Origin: an uncultured delta proteobacterium
GTDB lineage: Bacteria; Desulfobacterota; Binatia; UBA9968
DNA length: 64,000 bases
Direction of reading: 5' to 3'
Assembly (NCBI GenBank): GCA_963727625.1
Contig: CAVSHR010000005.1
Span: 64,001-128,000 of the forward strand
The notes beneath the pieces were generated by a model that made no database searches, was not told the origin of the DNA, and worked only from the letters and a program-made list of their open reading frames with translations. This document shows positions 24,660 to 37,425 of the stretch, one piece after another. Numbering within the stretch: the first letter of the stretch is position 1; every line of letters starts with the position of its first letter. Made by a program: the position numbers and the translations under genes.

Positions 24660-24830
24660 CGAGACAGCAAAAGAACAATTTTGTTCGGGCAAGATTTGCT
24701 AAAAATTTTGTACATCGTTTGTTCGCCCGCTGCGTCTAACTCTCCAGAAAGGACGGTTCCTCGCCGCTGATTCCACAGCGACGAAAAGCTGCGTTGACCG
24801 TGCCCGCAACGAAGAAGAAAGAGCAAAAGC

Positions 24831-25043
24831 ATGAAAAAACCGGAATCTGAAAAGATTGAGACCACCCTGGGAGAGCTCGTCGCCGCCGCCAGCGAAGTCG
24901 CCTTCGAGTACTCCAATAACGACATCGAAGCGTACAAGCTGGCTCGCCTGGCACTCATCGAAATTCTTAGAAAAACCTCGCATCCTCTCGACTTAGATCG
25001 AGAATTTGAAAGTCTGGGTATGTCATCTAAGCTCGTTCATTAA
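24831..25043 (+). CDS. Small hypothetical protein (TTLxxL motif)
   Basis: 70-aa ORF with a purine-rich leader and amphipathic helices. Confidence 0.65.
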   Translation: MKKPESEKIETTLGELVAAASEVAFEYSNNDIEAYKLARLALIEILRKTSHPLDLDREFESLGMSSKLVH

Positions 25044-25152
25044 GTCTTCGAAGGCCAGCGAGCGGCACCCTCCCTGGGCCGTGCAAATCCGCAATTTTTG
25101 GGGAACTTTTGCCCACGTCGCTACGTTTTGATTGACATAGATCTCGAGGCAA

Positions 25153-25181
25153 ACAACCAAAACACTGTGGCGCTCATCTAA
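25153..25181 (+). promoter_or_regulatory. ECF-type promoter, copy 1 (ACAACC-N16-CATCTAA); a separate GGAACT-N16-CGTTTT element lies at 25102-25129
   Basis: Matches five other intergenic copies with identical spacing. Confidence 0.65.
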
Positions 25182-25235
25182 TAGCGGCGCGACCATGCGC
25201 CGCAAATTGGCTGCAGCGGAGGAAAACCGAGAAAA

Positions 25236-25763
25236 ATGTTTCGATCCCTCACCTTGTGGCTGCTGATCGGGCTGGGTGCAGCGGCTTGGCTGGCCTGGCC
25301 AAAGTTTGGTGCGGCAATTACTTCGGGACAAAAGGCTCCGGAGTTCACCGGCGAAAATTGGCTAAATAGCAAACCTCTGACCATCGCGGGGCTGAAGGGC
25401 CGAGTCGTACTGGTCGAGTTCTGGACCTACGGCTGAATCAACTGCCGAAACATCATCCCGCAGTTGCGGGCGTGGCATGATAAGTACGAGGGCTCGGGCC
25501 TGACCATCGTCGGTGTCCACACCCCGGAGTTTTTCTGGGAAAAGGCGCTCGACAAGGTAAGAAAAGCAACCACAAGATTGGGCATCAAGTTTCCGGTCGT
25601 GCAAGACAATGATTTTGACAATTGGAAGCGCTACGGCGTCTGGGCTTGGCCGACGGTTATCTTGATCGACAAGCAAGGCGTGATCCGCTACAGCCACATC
25701 GGGGAAGGTGGCTACCAGAAAACCGAATCAATCATCCGCCAACTGCTCGACAGTCCAAGTTGA
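25236..25763 (+). CDS. Exported TlpA/DipZ-like redoxin, probable selenoprotein (UxxC)
   Basis: The two ORF-track pieces are one frame: [12 protein letters not shown](25434-25436)-INCRNIIP...GVHTPEF...[14 protein letters not shown] sits at the first Cys of the CxxC motif; hydrophobic N-terminus. Confidence 0.88.
25437..25476 (+). promoter_or_regulatory. Candidate bacterial SECIS hairpin
   Basis: CCCGC-AGTT-GCGGG stem-loop (25457-25470) whose G-containing loop lies about 25 nt after the UGA; stem extendable (CAT/GTG, GCC/GGC). Confidence 0.6.
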
Positions 25764-25816
25764 CAGTCGCTCTTTTCTCGGCAAACATAGACACAGGAGT
25801 CCGGAGGAACGAAGCC

Positions 25817-26791
25817 ATGCTGATCAAAAAACCCGCGGATTTAAAATCATCCGACATCACGCCCAAAGATCTTTACATGAACCGGCGTGAGTTTATCGCA
25901 TCCGCATCGACCCTGGCAGCATCCGCCGCGGCGGCTCTCGCCGGCTTGGGCGCCTTCGCCATGCCGGAAAAGGCGCAAGCCGGGCAAAAGCTCGCGAACC
26001 TAAAAAAAAGCTTTTACAGCACCGCTGAAAAGCAAAACTCTTTTAAAGACATCACTTCCTACAATAATTTTTACGAGCTCGGCGTCGACAAAAGCGACCC
26101 GGCGCAAAACGCCAAGTATCTGACTACCCGGCCATGGAGCGTCACTGTCGAAGGTGAAGTAAAAAAGCCCAAGACCTTCGACATCGAAACGATCATGAAA
26201 ATGAGCCCGCTCGAAGAGCGGGTTTATCGCATGCGCTGCGTCGAAGCCTGGTCCATGGTCGTCCCCTGGATCGGCTTCCCACTCAGCGCGCTGATCAAAC
26301 AGGTGGAACCGACCAACAACGCCAAATTCATTCAGTTCGTCACGTTGCTCGACCCAAAGCGTCTACCGGGGCAGAAGCCGGGGATTTTCGGCAGCGTGCT
26401 CGATTGGCCCTATGTCGAAGGGCTGCGCATGGACGAAGCGATGCACCCCCTGGCGATTCTCTCGGTGGGTCTCTACGGCGAAGTGTTGCCGGGGCAAAAC
26501 GGCGCGCCACTGCGCATGGTGGTCCCTTGGAAGTACGGCTTCAAGAGCATCAAGTCGATCGTCAAAATCCGCTTCGTCGAGACCCAGCCGCCGACCTCGT
26601 GGAATAAAATGCAGCCGCGGGAGTACGGCTTCTATTCCAACGTCAATCCGGAAGTCGATCATCCGCGCTGGAGCCAAGCCACCGAGCGGCGCATCGGCGA
26701 GTTTCTGCGTCGCAAGACTCTTATGTTCAACGGCTACGGCGAGCAGGTGGCAAGCTTGTATAAGGGAATGGACCTGAAGAAAAACTACTGA
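25817..26791 (+). CDS. msrP: Protein-methionine-sulfoxide reductase catalytic subunit
   Basis: Tat motif [49 protein letters not shown]. Confidence 0.96.
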
Positions 26792-26795
26792 AGCA

Positions 26796-26890
26796 ATTAA
26801 GAATTGAAAATGGAAAATTAAGATACGCCCCACGACTCCGTAAACCGCTTCTTTCTCCCGTTTTCAATTTACCATTTTACATTGTCCATT
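26796..26890. repeat. Inverted pair of ~7-nt tandem repeat tracts between msrP and msrQ
   Basis: aattaagaattgaaaatggaaaatt ... ttttcaatttaccattttacatt. Confidence 0.7.
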
Positions 26891-26891
26891 T

Positions 26892-27557
26892 ATGACGACT
26901 TGGCTCAAACCGCTCGCGTTCATTCTCTGCTCGGTGCCGCTCGGCCAGCTCGCCTACAACGCCTATGTCGGGGATCTGGGCGTCAATCCGATCGAGACGC
27001 TCACCCGATTCACCGGTTCCTGGGCGCTGATATTCTTGTTGACCAGCCTCGCCGTCACGCCGCTGCGGCGCCTCACCGGCTGGAACGACCTGGTCAAGCT
27101 GCGCCGTATGCTCGGCCTGTTCGCCTTCTGCTATGCCGCCCTGCATTTTTCCATTTACATCGGCTTGGATCATTTCTTCGATTTCGCGGCGATCGGCAAA
27201 GATATCGTCAAGCGACCCTACGTGACCGCGGGATTTACCGCCTTCATGATCATGCTGCCGCTGGCGCTCACTTCCAGCGCGGCGATGATCCGGCGCCTGG
27301 GCAAGCGTTGGCAACAGTTGCACCGCTTGGTGTACGTGGCGGCCATCGCCGCCGTGATTCATTTTTATTGGTTGGTGAAGGCGGACATCAGGCGCCCGGC
27401 GCAATATGGCGCCGTTCTGGCGTTGCTGTTGGGCTACCGGCTCTTTGTCAAGATGCGACCGCGCCTGGCGCCAAAACCGTCGGGCGGGCGTTTGCGCGCG
27501 ACGCCGGCCGAGGCCAAAACTCCACCGCGCGGCGCAAGCCCTAAGCGGGCTTCTTGA
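26892..27557 (+). CDS. msrQ: Protein-methionine-sulfoxide reductase heme-binding subunit
   Basis: LRRMLGLFAFCYAALH, PLALTS, WQQLHRLVY, IHFYW. Confidence 0.95.
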   Translation: MTTWLKPLAFILCSVPLGQLAYNAYVGDLGVNPIETLTRFTGSWALIFLLTSLAVTPLRRLTGWNDLVKLRRMLGLFAFCYAALHFSIYIGLDHFFDFAAIGKDIVKRPYVTAGFTAFMIMLPLALTSSAAMIRRLGKRWQQLHRLVYVAAIAAVIHFYWLVKADIRRPAQYGAVLALLLGYRLFVKMRPRLAPKPSGGRLRATPAEAKTPPRGASPKRAS

Positions 27558-29556
27558 TGCCGAGCTTTTCCATCCGCGATCGCAGGGTGCTCGGATTAAT
27601 GCCGAGCATATCCGCCGCGCCATTCTTGCCGTGAACCACCCAGCCGCACTCGTTTAACGCCAGCAAGATATGGCGGCGCTCGTTGTTTTCGAGCGTGTCG
27701 ATGAACGTGGCGCCGTGCAAGCTATCCAAGCTACGCAACAGGGATGGCTCGATCGGCACCACCGGCCCCTGGGCCAGGACCACCGAGCGCTCGATGACAT
27801 TTTGCAATTCGCGGATGTTTCCCGGCCAGCTGTAGCGGCACAAATGCTCCATCGAGCTTTGCGACACGCCGTGAATTTCCTTACCCAGGCTTTTCGCGAA
27901 CTTGCTGAGAAAAAAATTCACCAACAGCGGGATGTCCGCCGGCCGTTCGCGCAGCGCCGGCACTTCGAGAGGAAATACATTCAGGCGATAAAAGAGATCG
28001 GCGCGAAAGCCGCCGCTGCGGACCGCCTCCTGCAGATTGCGATTGGTGGCGGCGATCACGCGCACGTCGACTTTGATAGTGTGGCTGCTGCCCACCCTCT
28101 CAAACTCACCCTCTTGAAGCACGCGCAGTAATTTCACTTGGGTGTCCAGCGGCAATTCGGTGACCTCGTCGAGAAAGATCGTTCCGCCGTCGGCCAATTC
28201 AAAGCGGCCGATGCGTCGCTGGCTAGCGCCGGTGAACGCCCCCTTTTCGTGGCCGAACAGCTCGCTTTCCACCAACCCTGAAGGAATCGAGCCGCAGTTG
28301 ACTTTCACCAGGGGCCGGCTGTTACGCCGGCTGCGATCATGCAGCGCGCGCGCCAGCAGTTCCTTGCCCGTGCCGGTTTCACCGCGGATCAAAACCGTCG
28401 TGGTTGCCGGCGCGACCTGCTCGACTTTTCTCAGCAAATCGCGCAGCGGCGCGCTTTGGCCAATGATTTCTTCAAAATTATGCTCAGTCTTGAGCTCTTC
28501 CTGGAGATAAACCGCCTCGGCTTCGAATCTTGATTTCAGACCCTCCATCTCTTCGTGGGCCCTCATGTTGTCAACGGCGATGGCGATTTGCGCCGCGACC
28601 TCCATAAGAAATTCGGCGTCCGCTTCGGAATATTGCGCGCGATTCAAACTTCCCATCGTGATTGCGCCGATGCTTCGGCCGCGCACCACCAGCGGCAGAG
28701 CGCACAACGAGCGAAAACCGTGGCTATAAGCCCGTTCTTCGGAGTTCGTTACTCGCTCGGTTTCGAGATCGCGACGCAACACGTATTTTTGGCTGGTAAA
28801 AGCCAAACCGGCGGGACTGTCGTCGAGCTTCAGCTCCCGCCCCACCGGCGTGTAATCGTCGCGTTGATAGGGCCCGCCGTAAGTGACAATCAGTAACTGA
28901 TTTTGGTGGGTATCGTGCTGCGACAGAGCCAGCCGGTCGAATGGGACAATACACCTTACCGCCTCGGAGATCGCAGCCCAGAGTTCATCGCGTGCGCGCT
29001 TGGTAACTACGGCGTTGTTGATTTCGAGCAGCATGCGGCGCTGCGCCTCGCTGCGGCGCAACGACTCGTCGGCCCGGCAGCGCTCCAATTCCGACCCGGC
29101 GCGAGTGGCAAAGATGCGCAGTATCCGCACTTCCTGTTCGCCGAAGACGCGCGGTTTATCATCCATGACCACGAGATGTCCGAGAACCTTGCCGCGATAA
29201 TCGTGCAACGGCACACCCAGATAACTTTCCGCGCCAAGCGTCACCAGCGGTTTGTCCTCGGGAAACAACAATTGAAGTCGTTCCGGGTAGGCACAGATAT
29301 TTCCTTCGATGACTTTCTCGCAAGGAGTGCCGCGCAGCGCATATTCGACGTCCTGGGCAAAGCCCGCGCCATCCCAATACGCCAGCGCGCGCGCCCGCGT
29401 TTGCGCCGGCTCGATGCATTCCGCGACGAAGGTGTAACGCACTTCCAGCGCGCTCGCCAAATGTTTCGCCAACGAGCGAAAAAACTCCGAACCGGTGGCC
29501 CCGGCGATGCCTTCGGTGATGTGATAGAGCGTTTCGTCCCTGCGATGGATTTCCAT
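27541..29556 (-). CDS. Sigma54-dependent enhancer-binding protein, GAF-GAF-AAA+-HTH (FhlA-like)
   Basis: GETGTGKE, ESELFGHEKGAFTGA, FLDE, WPGNIRELQN, C-terminal LGINPSTLRSRMEKLGI. Confidence 0.95.
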   Translation of the reverse strand: MEIHRRDETLYHITEGIAGATGSEFFRSLAKHLASALEVRYTFVAECIEPAQTRARALAYWDGAGFAQDVEYALRGTPCEKVIEGNICAYPERLQLLFPEDKPLVTLGAESYLGVPLHDYRGKVLGHLVVMDDKPRVFGEQEVRILRIFATRAGSELERCRADESLRRSEAQRRMLLEINNAVVTKRARDELWAAISEAVRCIVPFDRLALSQHDTHQNQLLIVTYGGPYQRDDYTPVGRELKLDDSPAGLAFTSQKYVLRRDLETERVTNSEERAYSHGFRSLCALPLVVRGRSIGAITMGSLNRAQYSEADAEFLMEVAAQIAIAVDNMRAHEEMEGLKSRFEAEAVYLQEELKTEHNFEEIIGQSAPLRDLLRKVEQVAPATTTVLIRGETGTGKELLARALHDRSRRNSRPLVKVNCGSIPSGLVESELFGHEKGAFTGASQRRIGRFELADGGTIFLDEVTELPLDTQVKLLRVLQEGEFERVGSSHTIKVDVRVIAATNRNLQEAVRSGGFRADLFYRLNVFPLEVPALRERPADIPLLVNFFLSKFAKSLGKEIHGVSQSSMEHLCRYSWPGNIRELQNVIERSVVLAQGPVVPIEPSLLRSLDSLHGATFIDTLENNERRHILLALNECGWVVHGKNGAADMLGINPSTLRSRMEKLGIKKPA

Positions 29557-29606
29557 TCTCTGCGCCTCAGGAATTAAAAAGATCTTATCGGATAGCCAAA
29601 CATCGT

Positions 29607-29651
29607 TGCGAAATATCGCAGTTGTCGTGATATTTCGCAACGAAATATCGC
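29607..29651. promoter_or_regulatory. Upstream activator sequence: palindrome GATATTTCG-CAA-CGAAATATC plus an extra copy TGCGAAATATCGCA
   Basis: Perfect 9-bp inverted repeat at 29629-29649 between the bEBP gene and the sigma54 promoter; core ATTTCG..CGAAAT resembles FhlA-type sites. Confidence 0.7.
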
Positions 29652-29685
29652 TTCACAGCCCTCGTTGGCAAAGAATTAGTCACTT

Positions 29686-29698
29686 ATTCAACTACTTA
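29686..29698 (+). promoter_or_regulatory. IHF-like site
   Basis: ATTCAACTACTTA versus consensus WATCAANNNNTTR (1 mismatch), between the UAS and -24. Confidence 0.45.
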
Positions 29699-29704
29699 CG
29701 CTAA

Positions 29705-29720
29705 TGGCACAGACGCTGCT
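29705..29720 (+). promoter_or_regulatory. Sigma54 (-24/-12) promoter
   Basis: TGGCAC-AGACG-CTGCT, exact GG-N10-GC spacing, divergent from the bEBP. Confidence 0.85.
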
Positions 29721-29757
29721 TTATTACCCATCCGAATAGTTGATTGCGAGGAGATCA

Positions 29758-30033
29758 ATGCTGAGGATCACGGAAAATTTGGAAAACGGCAATACAATTC
29801 GGCTGAGACTCGACGGCACCATTTCGTCGGTAACTTTGGAAGATCTAACCGAGGTTTGCGATCGCCACCAACAAAGCGAGGGCCGAACCATCATCGTTGA
29901 TATGGCGGGAGTGAACTTCATGCACGATGATGCGGCACGCCAGATGGCAAAATTGCGCGGTGAGTCACTGCGCATTATCAACTGTTCCCCTTTTATCTCG
30001 ACACTCTTGGACACGGTCGGAAGGATGGATTGA
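29758..30033 (+). CDS. Small STAS-like domain protein
   Basis: MLRIT...IRLRLDG...IIVDMAGVNFMHDDA...LRIINCSPFI; GAGGAG RBS. Confidence 0.8.
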   Translation: MLRITENLENGNTIRLRLDGTISSVTLEDLTEVCDRHQQSEGRTIIVDMAGVNFMHDDAARQMAKLRGESLRIINCSPFISTLLDTVGRMD

Positions 30034-30038
30034 ATTTC

Positions 30039-30791
30039 ATGGAGACCAAAAAACCAAAATCTCTAGTCCTGCAAATGAAGAAGACGACTATGTCACTCCC
30101 ACAGACAGCGTTGGCTGTTGCGCAAACGTCAACCTACGAGGCCCGCAATGTCGGCCCGAGGGCGAATGCGGCGAGACCCGCGGCACGGCGAAAAAAATCT
30201 ATTGGCGACGATCGCCAACTCATCGAAAGGCTCCAAGCGGGCGACCATCAAGCGCTGGAAGAGATTTTCAATCTATACTCAGGAAAGCTCTATAACGTGG
30301 CGCAGCGCATCCTCGGCGAGAATGCCGACACCGAAGAAATCATCCAGGATGTTTTCTGGACGGTTTACCGCAAAGCCAAGACCTTCAAAGGCGACTCGCA
30401 ATTTTCGACTTGGCTATACCGCCTGACGGTAAACGCCGCGCTGGGTCGCATCCGGCGCAGCAAGAAGAACAAGGAAGTCGAGTACGACGAGTTTTTGCCG
30501 AAGTTTCAATCGGACGGACACCATCTCGTGCGTCCGGTGGTCGACTGGTCGGACACCCTCGACGAGAAATACGCCCAACGCGAGATCCATGCCCTGCTCG
30601 GCAAAGCCTTGAATGAATTGAAGCCGCTGGATAAAAGCGTGATCGTGCTCAGCGATCTCGAAGGACTTTCCGACAGGGAAATCGCCGATACACTTCAATT
30701 GACTGTTTCCGCGGTGAAAACCAGACTGCATCGGGCGCGCCTGTTCTTGCGCGGCAAATTGGCGGTACAACTAGGACACTCGGCAGCGTAA
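30039..30791 (+). CDS. ECF RNA polymerase sigma factor
   Basis: Region 2 (EEIIQDVF, FKGDSQFSTWLYRLTVN) and region 4 (EGLSDREIADTLQLTVSAVKTRLHRAR); N-terminal extension. Confidence 0.95.
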   Translation: METKKPKSLVLQMKKTTMSLPQTALAVAQTSTYEARNVGPRANAARPAARRKKSIGDDRQLIERLQAGDHQALEEIFNLYSGKLYNVAQRILGENADTEEIIQDVFWTVYRKAKTFKGDSQFSTWLYRLTVNAALGRIRRSKKNKEVEYDEFLPKFQSDGHHLVRPVVDWSDTLDEKYAQREIHALLGKALNELKPLDKSVIVLSDLEGLSDREIADTLQLTVSAVKTRLHRARLFLRGKLAVQLGHSAA

Positions 30792-30812
30792 TCCGAAGAA
30801 GGATACATCAAT

Positions 30813-31124
30813 ATGGCGAAACTCAAGGTGGCCGAGAAATCGCGTCTCAATGACTCTTGCAAAAATATGACGGATTTGATCTTGGATTATCTAACCGATC
30901 GACTGAGTCCGTGCCTGAAAGACGATTTCGAGCGCCATTTAAAAATGTGCCCGGATTGCGTGAATTTTTTAAAAACCTATCGCAAGACGATATCTCAGAC
31001 AGGATCGCTGAGTTCCGTGACCATTCCGGCGAAAGTGCGCAAAAACGTGCTCGCGTTCTTGCGCCGAAAAACCCATCGGATTGTCGTCCTTTTCTTTTAT
31101 TTAATCGCTCAAGTGACTGGATGA
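30813..31124 (+). CDS. Zinc-binding anti-sigma factor (zf-HC2/ZAS)
   Basis: C..DYL...FERHLKMCPDC (HxxxCxxC), directly after the ECF sigma. Confidence 0.88.
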   Translation: MAKLKVAEKSRLNDSCKNMTDLILDYLTDRLSPCLKDDFERHLKMCPDCVNFLKTYRKTISQTGSLSSVTIPAKVRKNVLAFLRRKTHRIVVLFFYLIAQVTG

Positions 31125-31154
31125 GTTGGCTTCCGGCTATAACCGGTTGGCTGC

Positions 31155-31183
31155 GTAACCTATGCTTACCGTCCCACGTCTAA
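31155..31183 (+). promoter_or_regulatory. ECF-type promoter, copy 2 (GTAACC-N16-CGTCTAA)
   Basis: AAC/CGTC ECF signature with the shared spacing. Confidence 0.7.
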
Positions 31184-31252
31184 GTGAAGTCGCTTGAGAC
31201 ATCCGTTTACGAGAAACTGGCGTAAAGTGGAAAAAAGGAAGGGAGCAGAAAC

Positions 31253-31456
31253 ATGAATACTTGGGAAGCAGTTTTTAGCCAAAGCCCGGCCAATGACGGT
31301 TACTACAACGGCGAAAAATTACCACAGGCCCATTGGGAATGGCCAAAGAGCACCTGGTTTCAGGCCCGCCTGGACCAGATTCGGGAAAACGAGCGGCCAT
31401 GGAACCCTCGAGCCGGCTTGAGACCACGAAATGCCGCTGCGTTGCGCACCATGTAG
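31253..31456 (+). CDS. Small Trp-rich hypothetical protein
   Basis: AGGAAGGGAG RBS; lies downstream of a predicted ECF promoter. Confidence 0.55.
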   Translation: MNTWEAVFSQSPANDGYYNGEKLPQAHWEWPKSTWFQARLDQIRENERPWNPRAGLRPRNAAALRTM

Positions 31457-31652
31457 TTGAGTCCGCAGTGGTTTTTGAATAGCTCGGACTTGCTCGCCGT
31501 ATATTCGCGACCTTCCTCGAGCGCTCAATGGAAAAAGCGCCGCGGGTATCTTTGCGCCCAGTCCCGAAAAAGTTTGGCGTCGCATCCTTGACACTGCTCC
31601 CAATCACCGCACGCGCACGCAGGGGATCATCCAGTCCGCTCGTAAATTTCTT

Positions 31653-31681
31653 GCAACCTAACGGCGGCGACGTACATCTAA
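31653..31681 (+). promoter_or_regulatory. ECF-type promoter, copy 3 (GCAACC-N16-CATCTAA)
   Basis: Shared motif and spacing. Confidence 0.7.
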
Positions 31682-31715
31682 TCAACACGAACAGCCAAAA
31701 TTCGGGAGGCAGATC

Positions 31716-31973
31716 ATGAGAGCTAAAACAAACGGTGCAGCCGCAGCGCCAAAGTCAAAGACCCTTCGCTTCAAAACAACGCTTTTCGATCTTTTCGCCG
31801 GGCTGATCGATGGTCAAATCAACGACGCCGCCGCGGTCGCCAGCGTCCGGCAAATCTTCGCCCACTGCGACGTGCGCCTGGCTCGAACCTTGACGCCATT
31901 AAGATTGGCGGCTTCACCCGAATCTCCGCGAATAACCCGCAACCTCTCTAAAAACGGCTTGCGGTTGGCGTGA
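31716..31973 (+). CDS. Small hypothetical protein (TTLxDL motif)
   Basis: GGAGG RBS; GTGA overlap with the next ORF. Confidence 0.65.
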   Translation: MRAKTNGAAAAPKSKTLRFKTTLFDLFAGLIDGQINDAAAVASVRQIFAHCDVRLARTLTPLRLAASPESPRITRNLSKNGLRLA

Positions 31974-32344
31974 CCCGATCTCGCCAATTCCAGGAAATGG
32001 AAGAGACGGTGCTTATTGCCATTCACCCGAATCGTCGGGCTAATAACGCGGCCAAGCCGCGGCGAGAGAGAAGCCAGCAGCGGCGAATTTACGGCCCACG
32101 CGATCTGCTGCCCGCGCATTTAACCTGCAAAGAAGAAGTCGACCTTATCAGCCACTATCTCGCCGCTGCGCTTGACAGTTCCGCTCTCCGCGCCTTTGAA
32201 AGTCATCTTTCAATCTGTCCGGACTGCGCGGCTTTTTTTCACACCTATAAAAAAACCCTCGAGCTGACCAGAGGTTTTTTGGCGCGACCGAAGCGCCAGC
32301 TCCGGCCGCTGGCACAGATCGGCAGACTCGCGAAGCAGCGCTAA
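31970..32344 (+). CDS. Second zf-HC2/ZAS anti-sigma-like protein
   Basis: LTCKE...HYL...FESHLSICPDC...TYKKT, paralogous to 30813-31124; alternative start 31997. Confidence 0.82.
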   Translation: MTRSRQFQEMEETVLIAIHPNRRANNAAKPRRERSQQRRIYGPRDLLPAHLTCKEEVDLISHYLAAALDSSALRAFESHLSICPDCAAFFHTYKKTLELTRGFLARPKRQLRPLAQIGRLAKQR

Positions 32345-32354
32345 CATTGGGAGC

Positions 32355-32383
32355 GCACCCTTTCCGAAAGTTTCCGCATCTAA
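32355..32383 (+). promoter_or_regulatory. ECF-type promoter, copy 4 (GCACCC-N16-CATCTAA)
   Basis: Shared motif and spacing. Confidence 0.62.
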
Positions 32384-32460
32384 CCAGGCAACAAGCAGTT
32401 TCACCCCATTGAGAGGAAATCTAAACGAAGTCACCCTGGGCATAATACGAGGAGAAATCC

Positions 32461-33573
32461 ATGAGAGCCATTGCCGTTACACCAGCGACCAAGCAAATCG
32501 CGATTATCGACCAGCCCGAGCCAAGCGCATCTCGACCTACCGACGTCAAGTTGCGCATGCTTGAAGCCGGAGTTTGCGGTACGGACAAAGAGATCTGCGC
32601 CTTCGAATATGGCACGCCGCCCGCGGGCAGTGATCACCTGATCATCGGCCATGAATCGCTGGGCGAAGTCGTCGAGGTAGGCCCGCAGGTCGGCAGAGTG
32701 AAAGTCGGCGATCTGGTCGTACCCATGGTACGGCGTCCCTGTCCGCATGATTATTGTATGGCTTGCACTAACGGCCGCCAGGATTTCTGTTTCACCGGCG
32801 ATTTCACCGAGCGCGGCATCAAGCAGCAGCATGGCTTTATGGCGCAATATGTCGTCGATGACGAAATTTACATGAACCCCGTGGCCCGGGAACTGCGCGA
32901 TGTGGCGGTACTGGTCGAGCCTTTGACGATTGCGGAGAAGGCTTTGATCCAAGTTTGGGACGTGCAGCAACGACTTCCCTGGAGTTGTCCGGTCTCCCCC
33001 GGCAAGGCGCACGCACACTGCCATCGCGCCGTGGTTCTCGGCGCCGGACCCGTTGGCTTATTGGGCGCCATGGCACTCGTGAACGCCGATTTCGATACCT
33101 ATGTTTATGCCCGCGAGCCGGTGCCTAATCCCAAAGCCGATGCCTTGAGGATGATCGGGGCGAAGTACATCTCGGCACAAAATCACTCCCTCGAGGATCT
33201 GGCGCAGAAAGTCGGCAACGTCGATCTCGTCTACGAGGCCACCGGCGCTTCGCGCCTCGCCTTCGCCATGATCGAAAATCTCGGCACCAACGGCATTTTT
33301 ATTTTCACCGGTGTCCCCGGGCGCAAAGGGCCGGTGGAGGTTGACACCGACCTGATGATGCGGAATTTGGTGCTCAAAAATCAGGTGATCTTCGGCACGG
33401 TCAACGCCGGCCGCGACGCCTTCGAAGCTTCGATTCGAGACCTCGCTGTATTCGCCAAGCGCTGGCCCGAAGCCGTCAGATCTCTCATTACCGGCCGCTA
33501 TCCGATGGAAGCGCACCGCGATCTGCTCACGGGAGCGGCCAGCGGCATCAAGAACGTCATCAAGCTAAACTAA
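32461..33573 (+). CDS. Glucose 1-dehydrogenase (Zn-MDR, archaeal-type family)
   Basis: GVCGTDKEI, GHESLG, VRRPC, ERGI...HGFM, VLVEPLTIAEK, GTVNA. Confidence 0.88.
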   Translation: MRAIAVTPATKQIAIIDQPEPSASRPTDVKLRMLEAGVCGTDKEICAFEYGTPPAGSDHLIIGHESLGEVVEVGPQVGRVKVGDLVVPMVRRPCPHDYCMACTNGRQDFCFTGDFTERGIKQQHGFMAQYVVDDEIYMNPVARELRDVAVLVEPLTIAEKALIQVWDVQQRLPWSCPVSPGKAHAHCHRAVVLGAGPVGLLGAMALVNADFDTYVYAREPVPNPKADALRMIGAKYISAQNHSLEDLAQKVGNVDLVYEATGASRLAFAMIENLGTNGIFIFTGVPGRKGPVEVDTDLMMRNLVLKNQVIFGTVNAGRDAFEASIRDLAVFAKRWPEAVRSLITGRYPMEAHRDLLTGAASGIKNVIKLN

Positions 33574-33924
33574 AATTTGCCGCCACCGCGGTTAGACTGC
33601 TTTGGCTTCACACCGTTCAGACTATCTAGCCCGGGCAACCGAGCTGGAAGCGATTTACAATCGAGAGGGGAAAACTGACTTAGTCTAAAATTCCCCGATT
33701 AAACCGGCCTTTTCGCTCCTGTGCAAACATGCCCGAACGAAATCCGCGCGACGGTGCGTGGGATGTTCATTTTCCAACGCATGGAACTGCCCTCGAATGA
33801 AATCCGTGCGCCAATTGAGACAGTCGGATTCCACTCCGTCTAGCGTTTGAGACTCAGCCAAACACCGCAAAATTGCGTTCGATCCTGCGCGCACCTCTTC
33901 GGGCATGGACTCCGTTGCACGGTC

Positions 33925-33953
33925 GCATCTATTTAAAACTCACCGCCATCTAA
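33925..33953 (+). promoter_or_regulatory. ECF-type promoter, copy 5 (GCATCT-N16-CATCTAA), possibly giving a leaderless aquaporin mRNA
   Basis: The -10 hexamer ends 6 nt before the ATG at 33959; no RBS. Confidence 0.5.
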
Positions 33954-33958
33954 TAGCC

Positions 33959-34804
33959 ATGATGCACGCGCTGAAGCGCCACTGGCCGGAATTTTTGATT
34001 GAAGGCACCTGCCTCGGGATGTTTATGATCTCGGCGTTTACCTTCGGCGCGATCTTCGAATATCCGGCATCGCCGATACACAACGCAATTCCCAGCCCGC
34101 TGCTCCGCCGCTTGCTGATGGGTCTTGCCATGGGTGGCACCGCGATCGCCATAATCTACTCGCCATGGGGTAAACAATCCGGCGCGCATATCAACCCATC
34201 CACAACCCTCACCTTTTTCCGCCTCGGCAAAGTGCAAAGGTGGGACGCCACTTTCTATGTCATCGCGCAATTTATGGGCGGCCTGATCGGTGCAATCATC
34301 GCGGCGACGCTACTGTCACCGTGGGTATCGGATCCCGCGGTCAATTATGTCGTAACGGCGCCCGGTAACGCCGGCGCGCCCTTGGCGTTTCTTGCAGAAA
34401 CAGCCATTACATTCATTCTGATGACGGTCATATTGCAGGTATCGAACAACTCGCGCCTGCATCAATGGACTGGACTCTGCGCCGGCATTCTGGTCGCCGC
34501 TTATATAACTTTCGAAGCGCCGCTTTCCGGCATGAGCATGAATCCCGCTCGCACCCTCGCCTCCGCCGTGCCGGCGCGCCATTGGCTCGATCTCTGGGTT
34601 TATTTTACTGCGCCGCTTCTCGGCATGCTTGCCGCAGGCGAAGTTTACCTGCGCATTAACGGCGCGGCACATCTAAGTTGCGCCAAGCTGCATCATGAAA
34701 ATAGTCAGCGCTGTATTTTTTGCGGCAAACCGGCCGGTGAAGTTCTACCTATAAAAATCCCTCTTGACACGATGACACCGAGTTGTAGTCTTAAATGCAA
34801 ATGA
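33959..34804 (+). CDS. MIP/aquaporin family channel (NPS/NPA) with a Cys/His-rich tail
   Basis: SGAHINPS, SGMSMNPART, WVYFTAP, C-terminal CAKLHH...RCIFC. Confidence 0.9.
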   Translation: MMHALKRHWPEFLIEGTCLGMFMISAFTFGAIFEYPASPIHNAIPSPLLRRLLMGLAMGGTAIAIIYSPWGKQSGAHINPSTTLTFFRLGKVQRWDATFYVIAQFMGGLIGAIIAATLLSPWVSDPAVNYVVTAPGNAGAPLAFLAETAITFILMTVILQVSNNSRLHQWTGLCAGILVAAYITFEAPLSGMSMNPARTLASAVPARHWLDLWVYFTAPLLGMLAAGEVYLRINGAAHLSCAKLHHENSQRCIFCGKPAGEVLPIKIPLDTMTPSCSLKCK

Positions 34805-35169
34805 GTTCTCTCGCGCAATCGGCTAAGCAGAACTTATTCCTACGCGGCTTCATTGCCGCTCTCGTGGTCGCAACCGCGTTTGCGACGCTCATGTCTTACC
34901 GTCATCTCGTTCCAAAGGGCATTCCCAGGCTGCTCTCCCAGGAGCATGAAGTCCGGCGCGAGCTCGCGCGCGCCGAGCGCATCAATCTTCGAACCGGTGT
35001 CATTTGCGAAGAAGGCATCGTTCGATCCGAAGCGGGGCAGCAATCCTGCACCGGCGCAATTTGTTCTGAGACTTTCGACCAGGTGGTCGGCGCCGCACCG
35101 GCAGTCTTCAGCTTTCCAACCCAGCTCGGCATGGCCGACCTAAATCGTTTCACCGTCCTGAACCTGTGA
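34801..35169 (+). CDS. Hypothetical protein with an N-terminal TM segment
   Basis: ATGA overlap with the aquaporin stop; hydrophobic segment. Confidence 0.45.
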   Translation: MSSLAQSAKQNLFLRGFIAALVVATAFATLMSYRHLVPKGIPRLLSQEHEVRRELARAERINLRTGVICEEGIVRSEAGQQSCTGAICSETFDQVVGAAPAVFSFPTQLGMADLNRFTVLNL

Positions 35170-35340
35170 TCCTTTCCGCTTAATTACCCGGCGCAATCGA
35201 GCCCGGGGGGCCTTCAGACACAATTCGCGATACTCGGCACTTCCTCATTGTAGGGGGAGGATTGGGGTCAATTCTCAATAGCGCCCCCACCAGCCGGGAG
35301 CCAAGAAAGGCTATTGAACCAGCCAAGAAGGATCATACCT

Positions 35341-35661
35341 ATGCATACGGTCAATTCACCAAAAGCGACATTTTCAGTTCTCCTCGTAGCTGCGGCCATT
35401 GCCGCCGGCGCCGCTAAAGCGACGCCCGCTAAAGGAGTGATTTCATCCACCCCGGCATCCGCCGTGGATTATTGTCACTTAGAATTTCCCGCAATCCGAC
35501 CAAGCACTCTGGGTACACCGAATCCCCGACTGAAAGAGGCGGCAAGCGGGGACATCGTGGATTACTACGGACCCTGCGACCACGATCCGCTGGGCAAGGA
35601 TGAAGTCGCGGAGCAGGAGCACGAAAATGAAGTGCGCCAGTCTCGCGACAATGGCCTTTAG
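35341..35661 (+). CDS. Small secreted protein (YCHLxFPAI...DYYGPCDHDPLG)
   Basis: Signal peptide, two Cys, AAGGA RBS. Confidence 0.75.
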   Translation: MHTVNSPKATFSVLLVAAAIAAGAAKATPAKGVISSTPASAVDYCHLEFPAIRPSTLGTPNPRLKEAASGDIVDYYGPCDHDPLGKDEVAEQEHENEVRQSRDNGL

Positions 35662-35841
35662 GCAAACAGGAGGCTCTAAGCGCTAAACCGAGGCCGCCGC
35701 GCAGGTGAGACAAATTTGCCGCGCGGCGCTCTCCCCTTGCGTCTGCCGATGAAAACGAGGGTCAACGCCGTCAAAGGTCGAATCAGAAACGCTATCGCGC
35801 GACCTTTCGCTTTGACGGCGCATCCAAGCTTTAATCCCGGC

Positions 35842-35870
35842 GCAACGGGAATTTTATCGGCCTTATCTAA
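35842..35870 (+). promoter_or_regulatory. ECF-type promoter, copy 6 (GCAACG-N16-TATCTAA)
   Basis: Shared motif and spacing. Confidence 0.65.
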
Positions 35871-35896
35871 ACTGAGAAACACTCGGAGGAAAAAGC

Positions 35897-36856
35897 ATGA
35901 ATCAACCAGCACTCCGGAAAGGGCCCGACGCCGACCATAGCGAGTGGGCGGTCATTCTCGCCGGCGGCAACGGCACGCGGCTAAAATCATTGACCCGAAA
36001 GATTGCCGGCGACGAGCGCCCGAAGCAATTCTGCTCAGTTCTTGGCGTCACCACACTGCTCGAAGAAACCCAAAGGCGGGTCACCTTGGAATTGGCCCGG
36101 GAGCGGACTCTCTACGTCGTCAATCGCAGCCACGAGCCGTTCTACGCAGAGATTCTCGGCGGTGAGCCGGACGCGAACCTGGTCGTACAGCCGCGCAATA
36201 TCGGCACCGCGCCGGCGATCCTTTACAGCCTCTTGAGAATTGCCGCTCAAGAACCGAATGCCATCGTCGCACTATTTCCCTCAGATCACTTTATTTCCGA
36301 CAACAAGAAATTCATGGCCCATATTCGCATCGCTCTCAACGCGGCGCGCCACAACCCGGAGGTTGTGATCCTGCTCGGGGTCGAGCCGAAGAGCCCCGAA
36401 GTCGAATATGGTTGGATCGAGCCCACCGGCTCGATGAAGGGACATCCGCGCGTCTTTGGCGTGCGGCGGTTTTGGGAGAAGCCCCATCAAATGCTCGCCC
36501 AGGTCCTGCAGCTGCGCGGCTGCCTCTGGAACAGTTTCGTAATGGTTGCTTCGGTACAGGCACTGCTTGAAATCATCGAGCGCGCCACTCCCGAGCTGTT
36601 TCGCGCTTTTGCGCCCGTGCAATCGCTCTTTCATACAAAAGCCGAGACTCGGGTGATCGACAAACTATACCAAAGGCTCGAGGAAATTAATTTCTCCCAT
36701 CGCGTCCTGGCGCTCTGTCCCGAAAGGCTAGCCGTGCTCAAAGTCAGCGGCGTGCGCTGGAGCGACCTCGGCGAACCCAAGCGGGTGATGGCGTCCCTCG
36801 ACATGGCCGGCATTCAGCCCTCCTGGGTAGATTCCGCGGCACGTCAGCTTGCCTAG
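35897..36856 (+). CDS. Sugar-phosphate nucleotidyltransferase (mannose-1-phosphate guanylyltransferase-like, no C-terminal cupin)
   Basis: ILAGGNGTRL, PKQF, QPRNIGTAPA, PSDH, EYGWI, FWEKP, WNS, WSDLG. Confidence 0.88.
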   Translation: MNQPALRKGPDADHSEWAVILAGGNGTRLKSLTRKIAGDERPKQFCSVLGVTTLLEETQRRVTLELARERTLYVVNRSHEPFYAEILGGEPDANLVVQPRNIGTAPAILYSLLRIAAQEPNAIVALFPSDHFISDNKKFMAHIRIALNAARHNPEVVILLGVEPKSPEVEYGWIEPTGSMKGHPRVFGVRRFWEKPHQMLAQVLQLRGCLWNSFVMVASVQALLEIIERATPELFRAFAPVQSLFHTKAETRVIDKLYQRLEEINFSHRVLALCPERLAVLKVSGVRWSDLGEPKRVMASLDMAGIQPSWVDSAARQLA

Positions 36857-37425
36857 CTCGTCCCTTCCCGCGAAATGAAAAAACGACCCTGTCGCGGCCA
36901 ATCGCCGCGACAGGAATCCATTAAATTCCCATTGCTGGCCGAAGTCTTTGCGACAATCGTTTCCTGAGCAAACATTTTATTCTTTCTCTTCCGCTGTGAT
37001 CCGGAACTACATTGCTCGATAGCTCGCCTTCTTCTGTGTCCCCCACCCGACGCGTCGAAGTGCAAACCGAAGATGCGACCGAGCATGCTCGCCGAGTCGC
37101 TGCAACGCGCCAAAGGCATCAAGTCCGTTACGGCATTTAGCGCACCGCTAGACGCGAGCGCCCAGGGCCCGACCACGGTGTTTATCCAATCACGATCACG
37201 TCTTTGTTCCGACCCCCAATCACCCGTCACCGGCGAAATTGAACTCCCGTTGGCCTCGAGCAATTCGGTCGAATGAACTCGTGATAAATCGCTGCGCCGC
37301 AAGTCTCCCTGGCTTCTCAACGGTGCTGGTCCCCAACCGGCAATTGACACAACCGGGTGGTTTGGTACCCTTGAAGTATTATCGCAGAGGTTCGACAAAC
37401 ACCTTTCAACAAGGAGATCGCGACC

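Follow-up and report, generated by a model that had tools for sequence, protein, structure and literature searches.

What controls the gene of an extracytoplasmic function (ECF) sigma factor that lies among genes for protein-oxidation repair and carbohydrate turnover, and which promoters would this sigma factor serve? The question arises from a 64,000-nucleotide stretch of DNA, referred to here as the window, that comprises positions 64,001 to 128,000 of contig CAVSHR010000005.1 (C5) in the 6.6-Mb genome, assembled in 15 contigs, of an uncultured delta proteobacterium of the Binatia (genome G000). An initial annotation had proposed that a bacterial enhancer-binding protein (bEBP) with two GAF domains, acting with sigma-54, switches on the ECF gene and that the ECF sigma factor then drives a set of target genes. 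Comparison with related genomes supports such a two-tier cascade, to which we assign a probability of about two in three, and it indicates that the proposal was incomplete as regards the extent of the regulon, the sixth of its promoter sites and a STAS-domain gene. The evidence throughout is that of sequence and its conservation, and promoters, operon structure, enhancer and a selenoprotein were all defined in this way.

The locus was compared with ten related loci (L036-L045), each from a congener, making 11 loci together with the window. Gene order is kept in the ten, as far as each contig extends, and runs Sec-redoxin (Sec, selenocysteine), msrP, msrQ, bEBP on the opposite strand, STAS, ECF, ZAS1 (an anti-sigma factor of the zinc-binding ZAS type), orf67, (orf85), ZAS2, dehydrogenase, aquaporin and nucleotidyltransferase (Table 1). 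In the cascade that we envisage, the bEBP would bind three half-palindromes, respond to some ligand and allow sigma-54 RNA polymerase to transcribe the STAS-ECF-ZAS1 operon. In the second tier, the small, RsrA-like ZAS1 would hold the ECF sigma factor until its release, most likely triggered by thiol oxidation, and the freed sigma factor would read promoters with the consensus G[CT]A[AT]C[CT]-N16-C[AG]TC[TCA]AA. Its predicted targets in the window are Sec-redoxin-msrPQ, orf67, orf85-ZAS2, the gene of a glucose-dehydrogenase-like enzyme, an aquaporin gene with a leaderless mRNA and a sugar nucleotidyltransferase gene; those outside would be DM13-NDH2, GMC oxidoreductase-glyoxalase(-glycogen debranching enzyme), MOSC-GH63 and, probably, a second Sec-peroxiredoxin. 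The sigma factor would not activate its own operon, and by inducing ZAS2 it would generate negative feedback.

The six bipartite sites listed in the initial annotation were all recovered at their coordinates, each with a spacer of exactly 16 nt and each ahead of a gene start. Their -10 boxes end 54, 69, 34, 77, 5 and 26 nt short of the respective start codons. The degenerate pattern RYAHCB-N16-YRTCTAA, which was drawn up after the six sites had been seen, matches six times in the window, where 0.05 matches are expected (standard deviation 0.22; none of 100 shuffles reached six), and all six matches fall on the + strand inside 25153-35870. When a position weight matrix (PWM) trained on these six sites was applied to the 11 loci (about 155 kb) with a threshold of at least 12.5 bits, 50 sites were found on the strand of the sigma gene and one on the opposite strand. 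Across the relatives, the consensus given above stands ahead of orthologous genes in ten congeners, and the spacer sequences between the boxes are unrelated from locus to locus. Some features lying outside the PWM selection also recur: the first three positions of the spacer are T-rich, and 38 of the 45 unique sites have a purine 7 nt downstream of the -10 box. The box of the aquaporin promoter ends exactly 5 nt from the start codon in seven of eight loci, the eighth carrying a deletion there, and the gap is 6 nt at the MOSC gene outside the window; both values fit the start distance of ECF promoters, such that leaderless mRNAs are predicted. Judged from its form and placement, the bipartite motif is very probably an ECF-type promoter.

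For scanning the genome, a second PWM was built from 39 unique sites of the relatives, with none from G000, and reversed sequence served as the control. At 20 bits or more this relatives-only PWM yields seven matches in the 6.6-Mb genome against one on the reversed sequence, and six of the seven lie on the + strand of a single 61-kb stretch (C5:89153-149252). Four of the annotated sites score 20.0-24.6 with this matrix and the site at 25153 scores 16.1; that at 35842 (TATCTAA) falls outside the 70 best matches, which reach down to 14.1 bits. Below 20 bits, the genome-wide counts do not rise above the control (at 16 bits, for instance, 28 matches compared with 26). Nor was there clear genome-wide enrichment of the six-site PWM, which the initial annotation had put forward as a check: 11 matches, including the six training sites, reach the score of the weakest site, compared with a mean of 6.3 (range 0-20) for permuted columns, and the script's own tally was nine, the listed scores being rounded. 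Genome-wide frequency showed no clear excess and was dropped as a statistic in favour of clustering, strand and orthologous position. The lack of an excess below 20 bits points to a small clustered regulon, estimated at about ten promoters in all, rather than to a genome-wide one.

The predicted regulon extends beyond the window. No comparable copy of the motif had been seen outside a 12-kb interval, and this holds within the window, but conserved sites of equal strength occur 42-49 kb downstream, beyond its end. They lie at C5:141998, 144440 and 149224 (19.3-24.5 bits with the relatives-only PWM), and the gene sets behind them encode a DM13 protein with an NDH-2-like flavoprotein, a GMC oxidoreductase with a glyoxalase-fold protein and then a glycogen debranching enzyme, and a MOSC/YiiM protein with a GH63/MGH1-like hydrolase. 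This second cluster was followed in ten further loci (L061-L070) from nine other congeners. The motif is present in nine of the ten; it stands ahead of the DM13 or GMC orthologs in all eight loci that hold these genes. Four loci also have it directly before GH63 or MOSC, and four have it directly behind GH63. A further, weaker site, GCAACC-N16-CATCTAC (18.0 bits, C4:691803, on another contig), precedes the gene of a second selenoprotein, an AhpC/TSA peroxiredoxin, and has a counterpart in four of 20 genus loci by pattern, with about four more, degenerate ones recognised by eye; the Sec-peroxiredoxin is probably a peripheral and variable member of the regulon.

Gene calls for the genome scan were made with an open reading frame (ORF) picker based on codon usage, which covers 78.5% of the genome and misses small genes. 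Sites at C2:410374 (a cation/proton antiporter-like gene), C5:178254 (YajQ-like), C4:250457 and others constitute unconfirmed candidates for extra members, and one at C2:229075 was discarded because no convincing gene follows it. A site GTAACC-N16-CGTCTAA at C2:599859, which precedes the gene of a 91-aa membrane protein, lies about 3 kb downstream of another ECF sigma gene (C2:596271-596744) and may belong to that sigma factor and not to the one in the window.

The upper tier is defined by the intergenic region between the bEBP and STAS genes. TGGCAC followed, 5-6 nt on, by TGC is invariant in all 11 loci amid flanks that vary, and a triplet of upstream activating sequences (UAS, consensus TGCGAAATATCGCA), located about 60-95 bp upstream of this -24/-12 element, is kept in ten of the 11 loci, the eleventh being cut by a contig end. 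Nowhere else in the genome do at least three such UAS occur within 60 bp. The bEBP matches Sigma54_activat (7e-73) and carries the GAFTGA motif, and alignment with its orthologs begins at residue 19-35 of the long ORF; rpoN is present at C6:181555. The spacing between the -24 GG and the -12 GC, the AAA+ activator with GAFTGA, the upstream sites and rpoN are all in keeping with a sigma-54 promoter, and no ECF-type site of at least 12.5 bits was found in the bEBP-STAS intergenic region of any of the 11 loci. Thus, sigma-54 control of the sigma operon is the best reading. The argument rests on conservation; the one match to the sigma-54 pattern in the window (TGGCACAGACGCTGC at 29705), with 0.33 expected, is not significant on its own. 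The sigma-54 promoter facing the GAF-GAF bEBP, as first annotated, is therefore retained, with the amendment that its first gene is the overlooked STAS gene.

Minor observations on the activator concern its domain content and its own promoter. The bEBP orthologs of L036, L037, L039 and L044 gave two or three overlapping tblastn matches of the GAF region, suggesting that these activators carry one more GAF domain than that of the window. A weak sigma-70-like sequence, TTGCCA-16-GATATT (29644-29671, - strand), could serve the bEBP gene, although it does not exceed chance expectation; it overlaps the third UAS, which would let the activator repress its own transcription.

The sigma factor itself possesses regions 2 and 4 only (Sigma70_r2 3.1e-14, Sigma70_r4_2 8.4e-15) and matches the ECF superfamily model TIGR02937 at 101.8 bits (cut-off 42.9); against NCBIfam equivalogs all scores fall below cut-off, the best being 153.9 bits with NF008888 (cut-off 204). 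Orthologs 68-82% identical occur in 13 of the 24 congeneric genomes searched, and orthologs in Candidatus Binatia bacterium metagenome-assembled genomes from soil are 82% and 78% identical. A search of 300 other genomes of the phylum revealed distant homologues (35-46% identical) in 28; these are plain ECF-ZAS pairs, and no STAS gene was found within their 1.5-kb flanks. In many of them xGAACC-N16-CATCTAA or GAATCC-N16-CATCTAA lies right before the sigma gene itself, and seven of 29 upstream regions reach at least 10 bits as against none of 87 controls. This indicates that the CATCTAA-type promoter goes with this clade of sigma factors, and it seems that the Binatia genus has swapped an autoregulatory promoter for sigma-54 control. 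Among the distant homologues, one alone (L097, G123:C78; 38% identical) shows a suitably placed sigma-54-like site: TGGCACGTCAATTGCT, correctly oriented, about 140 nt upstream of the ECF gene, with no bEBP within 1.3 kb. It could represent a second, independent link from sigma-54 to an ECF gene, or chance.

The supposition that the motif is no promoter but the operator of a DNA-binding regulator, or a repeat arisen by chance, is extremely improbable. Its strict orientation (50 sites to one), the fixed 16-nt spacer of unconserved sequence and the AAC and CGTC-like boxes typical of ECF promoters all oppose it, and the constant 5-nt gap to a start codon in seven of eight loci fits a promoter and not a symmetric operator; chance is excluded by the six matches where 0.05 were expected and by the relatives-only PWM scan. 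Less extreme, but still quite improbable, is the possibility that the -24/-12 element is not the main or only promoter and that STAS-ECF-ZAS1 is transcribed constitutively from a housekeeping promoter, with regulation left to the anti-sigma step. The insignificance of the lone -24/-12 match would accord with this, and so would the nature of the sigma-70 scan, which found no sigma-70-like promoter on the + strand at 24800-37200 but was a simple one, covering close matches to the E. coli consensus, which may not be that of the Binatia. Such a promoter would leave unaccounted for a TGGCAC/TGC element that is invariant in 11 of 11 loci amid varying flanks, with a triple enhancer, the only one of its kind in the genome, at the usual distance and a divergent activator bearing GAFTGA.

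The weakest link of the cascade is the pairing of the motif with this particular sigma factor, which is reached indirectly; we consider it likely that the window's sigma factor reads the motif. Several observations weigh against this. Five congeners of 80-98% completeness (G018, G007, G003, G023 and G017) lack an ortholog, their best matches being at most 38% identical. In each of them (L129-L133) the segment from bEBP to ZAS1 is deleted, with differing end points and with C-terminal remnants of the bEBP in two, and msrPQ and its promoter are intact, four of the five retaining a perfect GCAACC-N16-CATCTAA before Sec-redoxin/msrPQ. A consensus promoter also persists before a GMC remnant in G007. 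The strict form of the pattern is enriched to a similar degree in genomes without an ortholog (60 against 32 in a backwards control) and with one (90 against 51), in counts that leave out G005, and it is not enriched in the sister family (2 against 10). Moreover, paralogous RpoE-like ECF sigma factors use GGAAC[CT]-N16-[CT]GTCTAA, and boxes this similar render cross-recognition plausible. The retained promoters and the similar enrichment imply that some other sigma factor may read them, and the promoters, though real, might be served mainly or also by another genus-wide RpoE-like ECF sigma factor, that of the cluster being accessory, redundant or directed to other targets. We consider this unlikely. 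Upstream of the genome's nine further ECF genes lie boxes of other kinds (GGAACT..AGTCTAA, CTGAAT..CGTCTAA, TTAACC..CGTCTAA), none of them with the CATCTAA consensus that the distant homologues of the cluster sigma factor possess. Loss of the module is accompanied by decay of cluster genes: G018 retains a Sec-redoxin remnant, G003 and G017 have fragments of the aquaporin gene and G007 has about 90 aa of GMC, and glucose dehydrogenase is missing at the locus in all five. In addition, several ortholog-less genomes are incomplete (60-88%), and the sigma gene may be unassembled there.

Within the bEBP/sigma-54-ECF cascade, release of the sigma factor would depend on the ZAS proteins. The two score 24.3 and 27.7 bits against zf-HC2 (cut-off 22.2) and show the H-x3-C-x2-C signature with an upstream Cys, and the ZAS1 gene lies beside the sigma gene, starting 22 nt after its stop codon. 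C16, H42, C46 and C49 of ZAS1 are invariant in 11 sequences, with the ligand spacing found in RsrA; a hydrophobic C-terminal tail is present in eight of the 11 proteins, and the profile matches RsiW at 9e-4, closer than any RsrA chain. ZAS2 occurs behind an ECF-type promoter in eight related loci, a location which suggests that it is an induced feedback inhibitor. By analogy, thiol oxidation would be the most likely trigger for ZAS1, and both proteins may sense redox state. The first gene of the operon encodes a protein with a STAS fold, its profile matching TM1442 (0.0018) and SpoIIAA, and it resembles SpoIIAA/RsbV in being a single-domain STAS protein in the same operon as a sigma factor and an anti-sigma factor; it differs in that the phospho-Ser is replaced and the anti-sigma factor is a zinc-finger protein and not a HATPase kinase.

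Some features of these proteins detract from the scheme. RsiW and ChrR carry the ZAS motif yet are not known to be thiol switches, and the motif does not prove redox sensing. In the STAS proteins, the column aligned with the Ser of TM1442 holds Asp in eight of 11, and Glu, Ala and Gly once each, Ser being absent, and no HATPase/kinase-type anti-sigma factor or PP2C was detected among 20 neighbouring proteins scanned. Partner switching, which involves a phosphorylatable Ser/Thr and a kinase-type anti-sigma partner, does not describe this operon.

With regard to known systems, the sigma factor has its best solved-structure matches in E. coli RpoE, P. aeruginosa AlgU and B. subtilis SigW (1e-17 to 1e-20). 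RpoE-like promoters carry AAC in the -35 and TC in the -10 box, about 16 nt apart. Those sigma factors are subject to regulated proteolysis, in contrast to the cytoplasmic ZAS and sigma-54 control proposed here. Control of methionine-sulfoxide reductases by an ECF sigma factor with a ZAS partner has reportedly been studied for Haemophilus RpoE2, and a methionine-sulfoxide reductase is said to be under such control by Neisseria Ecf. The anti-sigma factor of ECF16 is a multi-pass membrane protein and not a ZAS. SigR of S. coelicolor is positively autoregulated, whereas the sigma operon of the window lacks the sigma factor's own motif. The likeness to SigR-RsrA (ECF12) lies in the small 103-aa anti-sigma factor with C-x25-H-x3-C-x2-C, the spacing of RsrA, and, as far as the portion of the source used here goes, in a regulon with thiol-redox and methionine-sulfoxide repair functions (PMC4960319); the promoter boxes differ and ZAS1 is nearer to RsiW in sequence. 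The part consulted of a study on ECF16 sigma factors describes their control of msrPQ-type operons and resistance to hypochlorite-type oxidants, with BcrS in Brucella and a system in Azospira (PMC8315932). SigF-NrsF/BcrS-AbcS (Azospira, Caulobacter, Brucella) thus resembles the window in that an ECF sigma factor drives a yedYZ/msrPQ operon; the partner gene there encodes a Met-rich peptide, here a selenoprotein redoxin, and no sigma-54 tier is described in that part of the source (PMC8315932).

The initial annotation had considered the combination undescribed. Cascades from sigma-54 to an ECF sigma factor are known, namely HrpR/S-HrpL, but for the full combination of sigma-54 control, a retained ZAS, an operon STAS protein and a second, induced ZAS no description was found in a literature search. 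The bEBPs HrpR and HrpS of P. syringae act at a sigma-54 promoter to produce HrpL (ECF32), which reads a dedicated box in a clustered regulon, and this order of bEBP/sigma-54, ECF gene and dedicated promoter box is what the window shares with it (PMC8999054). HrpL, in the same account, operates without an anti-sigma factor and controls type III secretion (PMC8999054); in the window, the operon of the sigma factor includes the genes of a ZAS and a STAS protein, a GAF-GAF protein serves as activator and the regulon concerns oxidative stress and carbohydrates. The HrpL type of control, purely transcriptional and with no cognate anti-sigma factor, does not extend to this locus, where ZAS1 is co-transcribed and ZAS2 lies in the regulon. 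STAS, sigma54 and MsrP go unmentioned in the main text of the ECF reclassification paper, whose supplements give genomic contexts for each group and may already include this one (PMC7826278). A literature search on STAS domains together with ECF sigma factors brought up only a partner-switching system of Rhodobacter, and no description of a STAS protein paired with a zinc anti-sigma factor was found.

A more far-reaching scenario, possible but doubtful as a whole, is that an RpoE-like ECF sigma factor swapped autoregulation for sigma-54/bEBP control, kept its ZAS and gained an Asp-site STAS protein as a new kind of ZAS antagonist, to form a three-input gate for the general stress response of the lineage. 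If so, the inputs would be the STAS protein, the ligand of the GAF domains and the thiol state of ZAS1, with feedback through induced ZAS2, and the targets would include two selenoproteins. An ECF sigma factor whose autoregulatory promoter is replaced by a sigma-54 promoter, the anti-sigma factor being kept, would form a transcriptional and post-translational gate, unlike HrpL. The Binatia are an uncultured, globally distributed lineage of soil and sediment, for which a literature search yielded only metabolic genome surveys. The complete circuit can be read from the sequence, from the enhancer and sigma-54 promoter to the sigma factor, its two anti-sigma factors, some ten promoters of target genes and a transcript predicted to be leaderless, and E. 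coli could host its reconstruction with no need to grow the organism; the promoter and sigma factor may also serve as an orthogonal expression part. The predicted regulon joins MsrPQ, two Sec-redoxins, MOSC and glyoxalase proteins with an aquaporin and with genes on the carbohydrate side (glucose dehydrogenase, GMC oxidoreductase, glycogen debranching enzyme, GH63 and sugar nucleotidyltransferase), a mixture suggesting that protein-oxidation repair is linked with the turnover of carbohydrates or compatible solutes. A role in desiccation stress may be envisaged, and the regulon could suit a soil habitat subject to drying and rewetting.

Table 1. Features of the locus, in coordinates of the window; promoter assignments are predictions.
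Feature	Position	Strand	Details
P1 promoter	25153..25181	+	ACAACC-N16-CATCTAA; predicted to drive the Sec-redoxin-msrP-msrQ operon
Sec-redoxin	25236..25763	+	exported thioredoxin-fold selenoprotein (AhpC/TSA, Redoxin; Pfam 2e-18)
SECIS-like hairpin (selenocysteine insertion sequence)	25457..25470	+	CCCGCAGTTGCGGG; 21 nt after TGA
msrP	25817..26791	+	molybdopterin methionine-sulfoxide reductase, YedY type; Oxidored_molyb 2.4e-30
msrQ	26892..27557	+	haem b membrane partner, YedZ type; Ferric_reduct 6.5e-18
bEBP	27541..29556	-	GAF-GAF-AAA+-HTH_8 (Pfam); ORF open to 29640, likely ATG 29556
Enhancer (UAS)	29607..29651	not assigned	three half-palindromes, TGCGAAATATCGCA, GTGATATTTCGCA, CGAAATATCGC
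Sigma-54 promoter	29705..29719	+	TGGCACAGACGCTGC; -24 TGGCAC, -12 CTGC; 39 nt before STAS start codon
STAS-domain protein	29758..30033	+	91 aa; first gene of sigma-54 operon; PF01740 25.2 bits (cut-off 22.6)
ECF sigma factor	30039..30791	+	N-terminal extension of about 50 aa; ORF open from 30030
ZAS1 anti-sigma factor	30813..31124	+	103 aa; C16-x25-H42-x3-C46-x2-C49; zf-HC2
P2 promoter	31155..31183	+	GTAACC-N16-CGTCTAA; orf67
orf67	31253..31456	+	conserved small protein; 47-78% identical in 9 of 10 related loci
P3 promoter	31653..31681	+	GCAACC-N16-CATCTAA; orf85 and ZAS2
orf85	31716..31973	+	weakly conserved small protein
ZAS2 anti-sigma factor	31970..32344	+	conserved core of about 60 aa (residues about 51-111); C-x25-H-x3-C-x2-C; zf-HC2 2.8e-6
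P4 promoter	32355..32383	+	GCACCC-N16-CATCTAA; glucose-dehydrogenase-like gene
Glucose 1-dehydrogenase-like enzyme	32461..33573	+	Zn-dependent, MDR family; Glu_dehyd_C 5.2e-48, ADH_N
P5 promoter	33925..33953	+	GCATCT-N16-CATCTAA; aquaporin; ends 5 nt before ATG
Aquaporin	33959..34804	+	MIP-family channel; PF00230 3.6e-31; start by ortholog alignment
P6a promoter	35799..35827	+	GCGACC-N16-CATCCAA; nucleotidyltransferase; 18.2 bits, relatives-only PWM
Sixth annotated site	35842..35870	+	GCAACG-N16-TATCTAA; match in G000 only
Sugar-1-phosphate nucleotidyltransferase	35897..36856	+	mannose-1-phosphate guanylyltransferase-like; NTP_transferase 6.9e-22

The gene identities given in the initial annotation agree with the Pfam results, and its promoters have counterparts in the relatives with the exception of the sixth. 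That of P1 lies ahead of the orthologous redoxin gene in L037, L038, L039, L040, L044 and L045; those of P2 and P4 occur at the same position in L037, L043, L044 and L045, and in L036, L037, L038, L040 and L043, respectively; and those of P3 precede orf85/ZAS2 in L036-L043, a further one being present where the contig of L045 ends. The site at 35842 is not matched in the relatives when the regions upstream of the nucleotidyltransferase genes are aligned; the promoter conserved in position is instead P6a, 43 nt upstream, which is in register with sites of L036, L037, L038 and L043. The msrP orthologs are 75-85% identical. No match to orf67 was found in Pfam or NCBIfam, and a Pfam scan gave no family for orf85, which has counterparts of 30-39% identity in the corresponding position of five related loci (L036, L039, L040, L041 and L042). 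The nucleotidyltransferase matches the N-terminal part of TIGR01479 (7e-36) below its cut-off.

Of the two NPA boxes of the aquaporin, the first has the sequence NPS (34180-34200) and the second NPA (34540-34560), and the substrate could accordingly be water, glycerol or H2O2. Between the aquaporin and nucleotidyltransferase genes lie ORFs at 34795-35169 (124 aa) and 35341-35661 (106 aa), without a family match; tblastn gave no counterpart in any of the ten related loci, such that they resemble an insertion specific to G000. In relatives, a secreted protein of about 160 aa, GlcG/HbpS-like as read from its sequence by eye and not from a family scan, is encoded after the nucleotidyltransferase behind GCATCT-N16-CATCTAA (L036:15413-15907; L037:2699-3169, - strand; L039:15579-16076), and is not encoded at that position in G000.

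The assignment of the redoxin as a selenoprotein is based on an in-frame TGA (25434-25436; motif FWTYG-U-INC), which is aligned with Cys in an ortholog: the TGA is kept in seven of eight loci and the ortholog of L040 has TGC (Cys) there. The hairpin CCCGCAGUUGCGGG follows in all eight, the Cys form included, and the Sec machinery is encoded in the genome, with tRNA-SeC at C5:768830 and with SelA and SelB. Two more AhpC/TSA selenoprotein genes, with W-U-P-Y-C and a single in-frame TGA, lie at C4:691856-692344 (L058:2857-3348; the Sec-peroxiredoxin gene behind the site at C4:691803) and C2:385768-386253, and the TGA of this W-U-P-Y-C motif is kept in all 27 matches, which come from the 23 of 31 genus genomes that gave a match.

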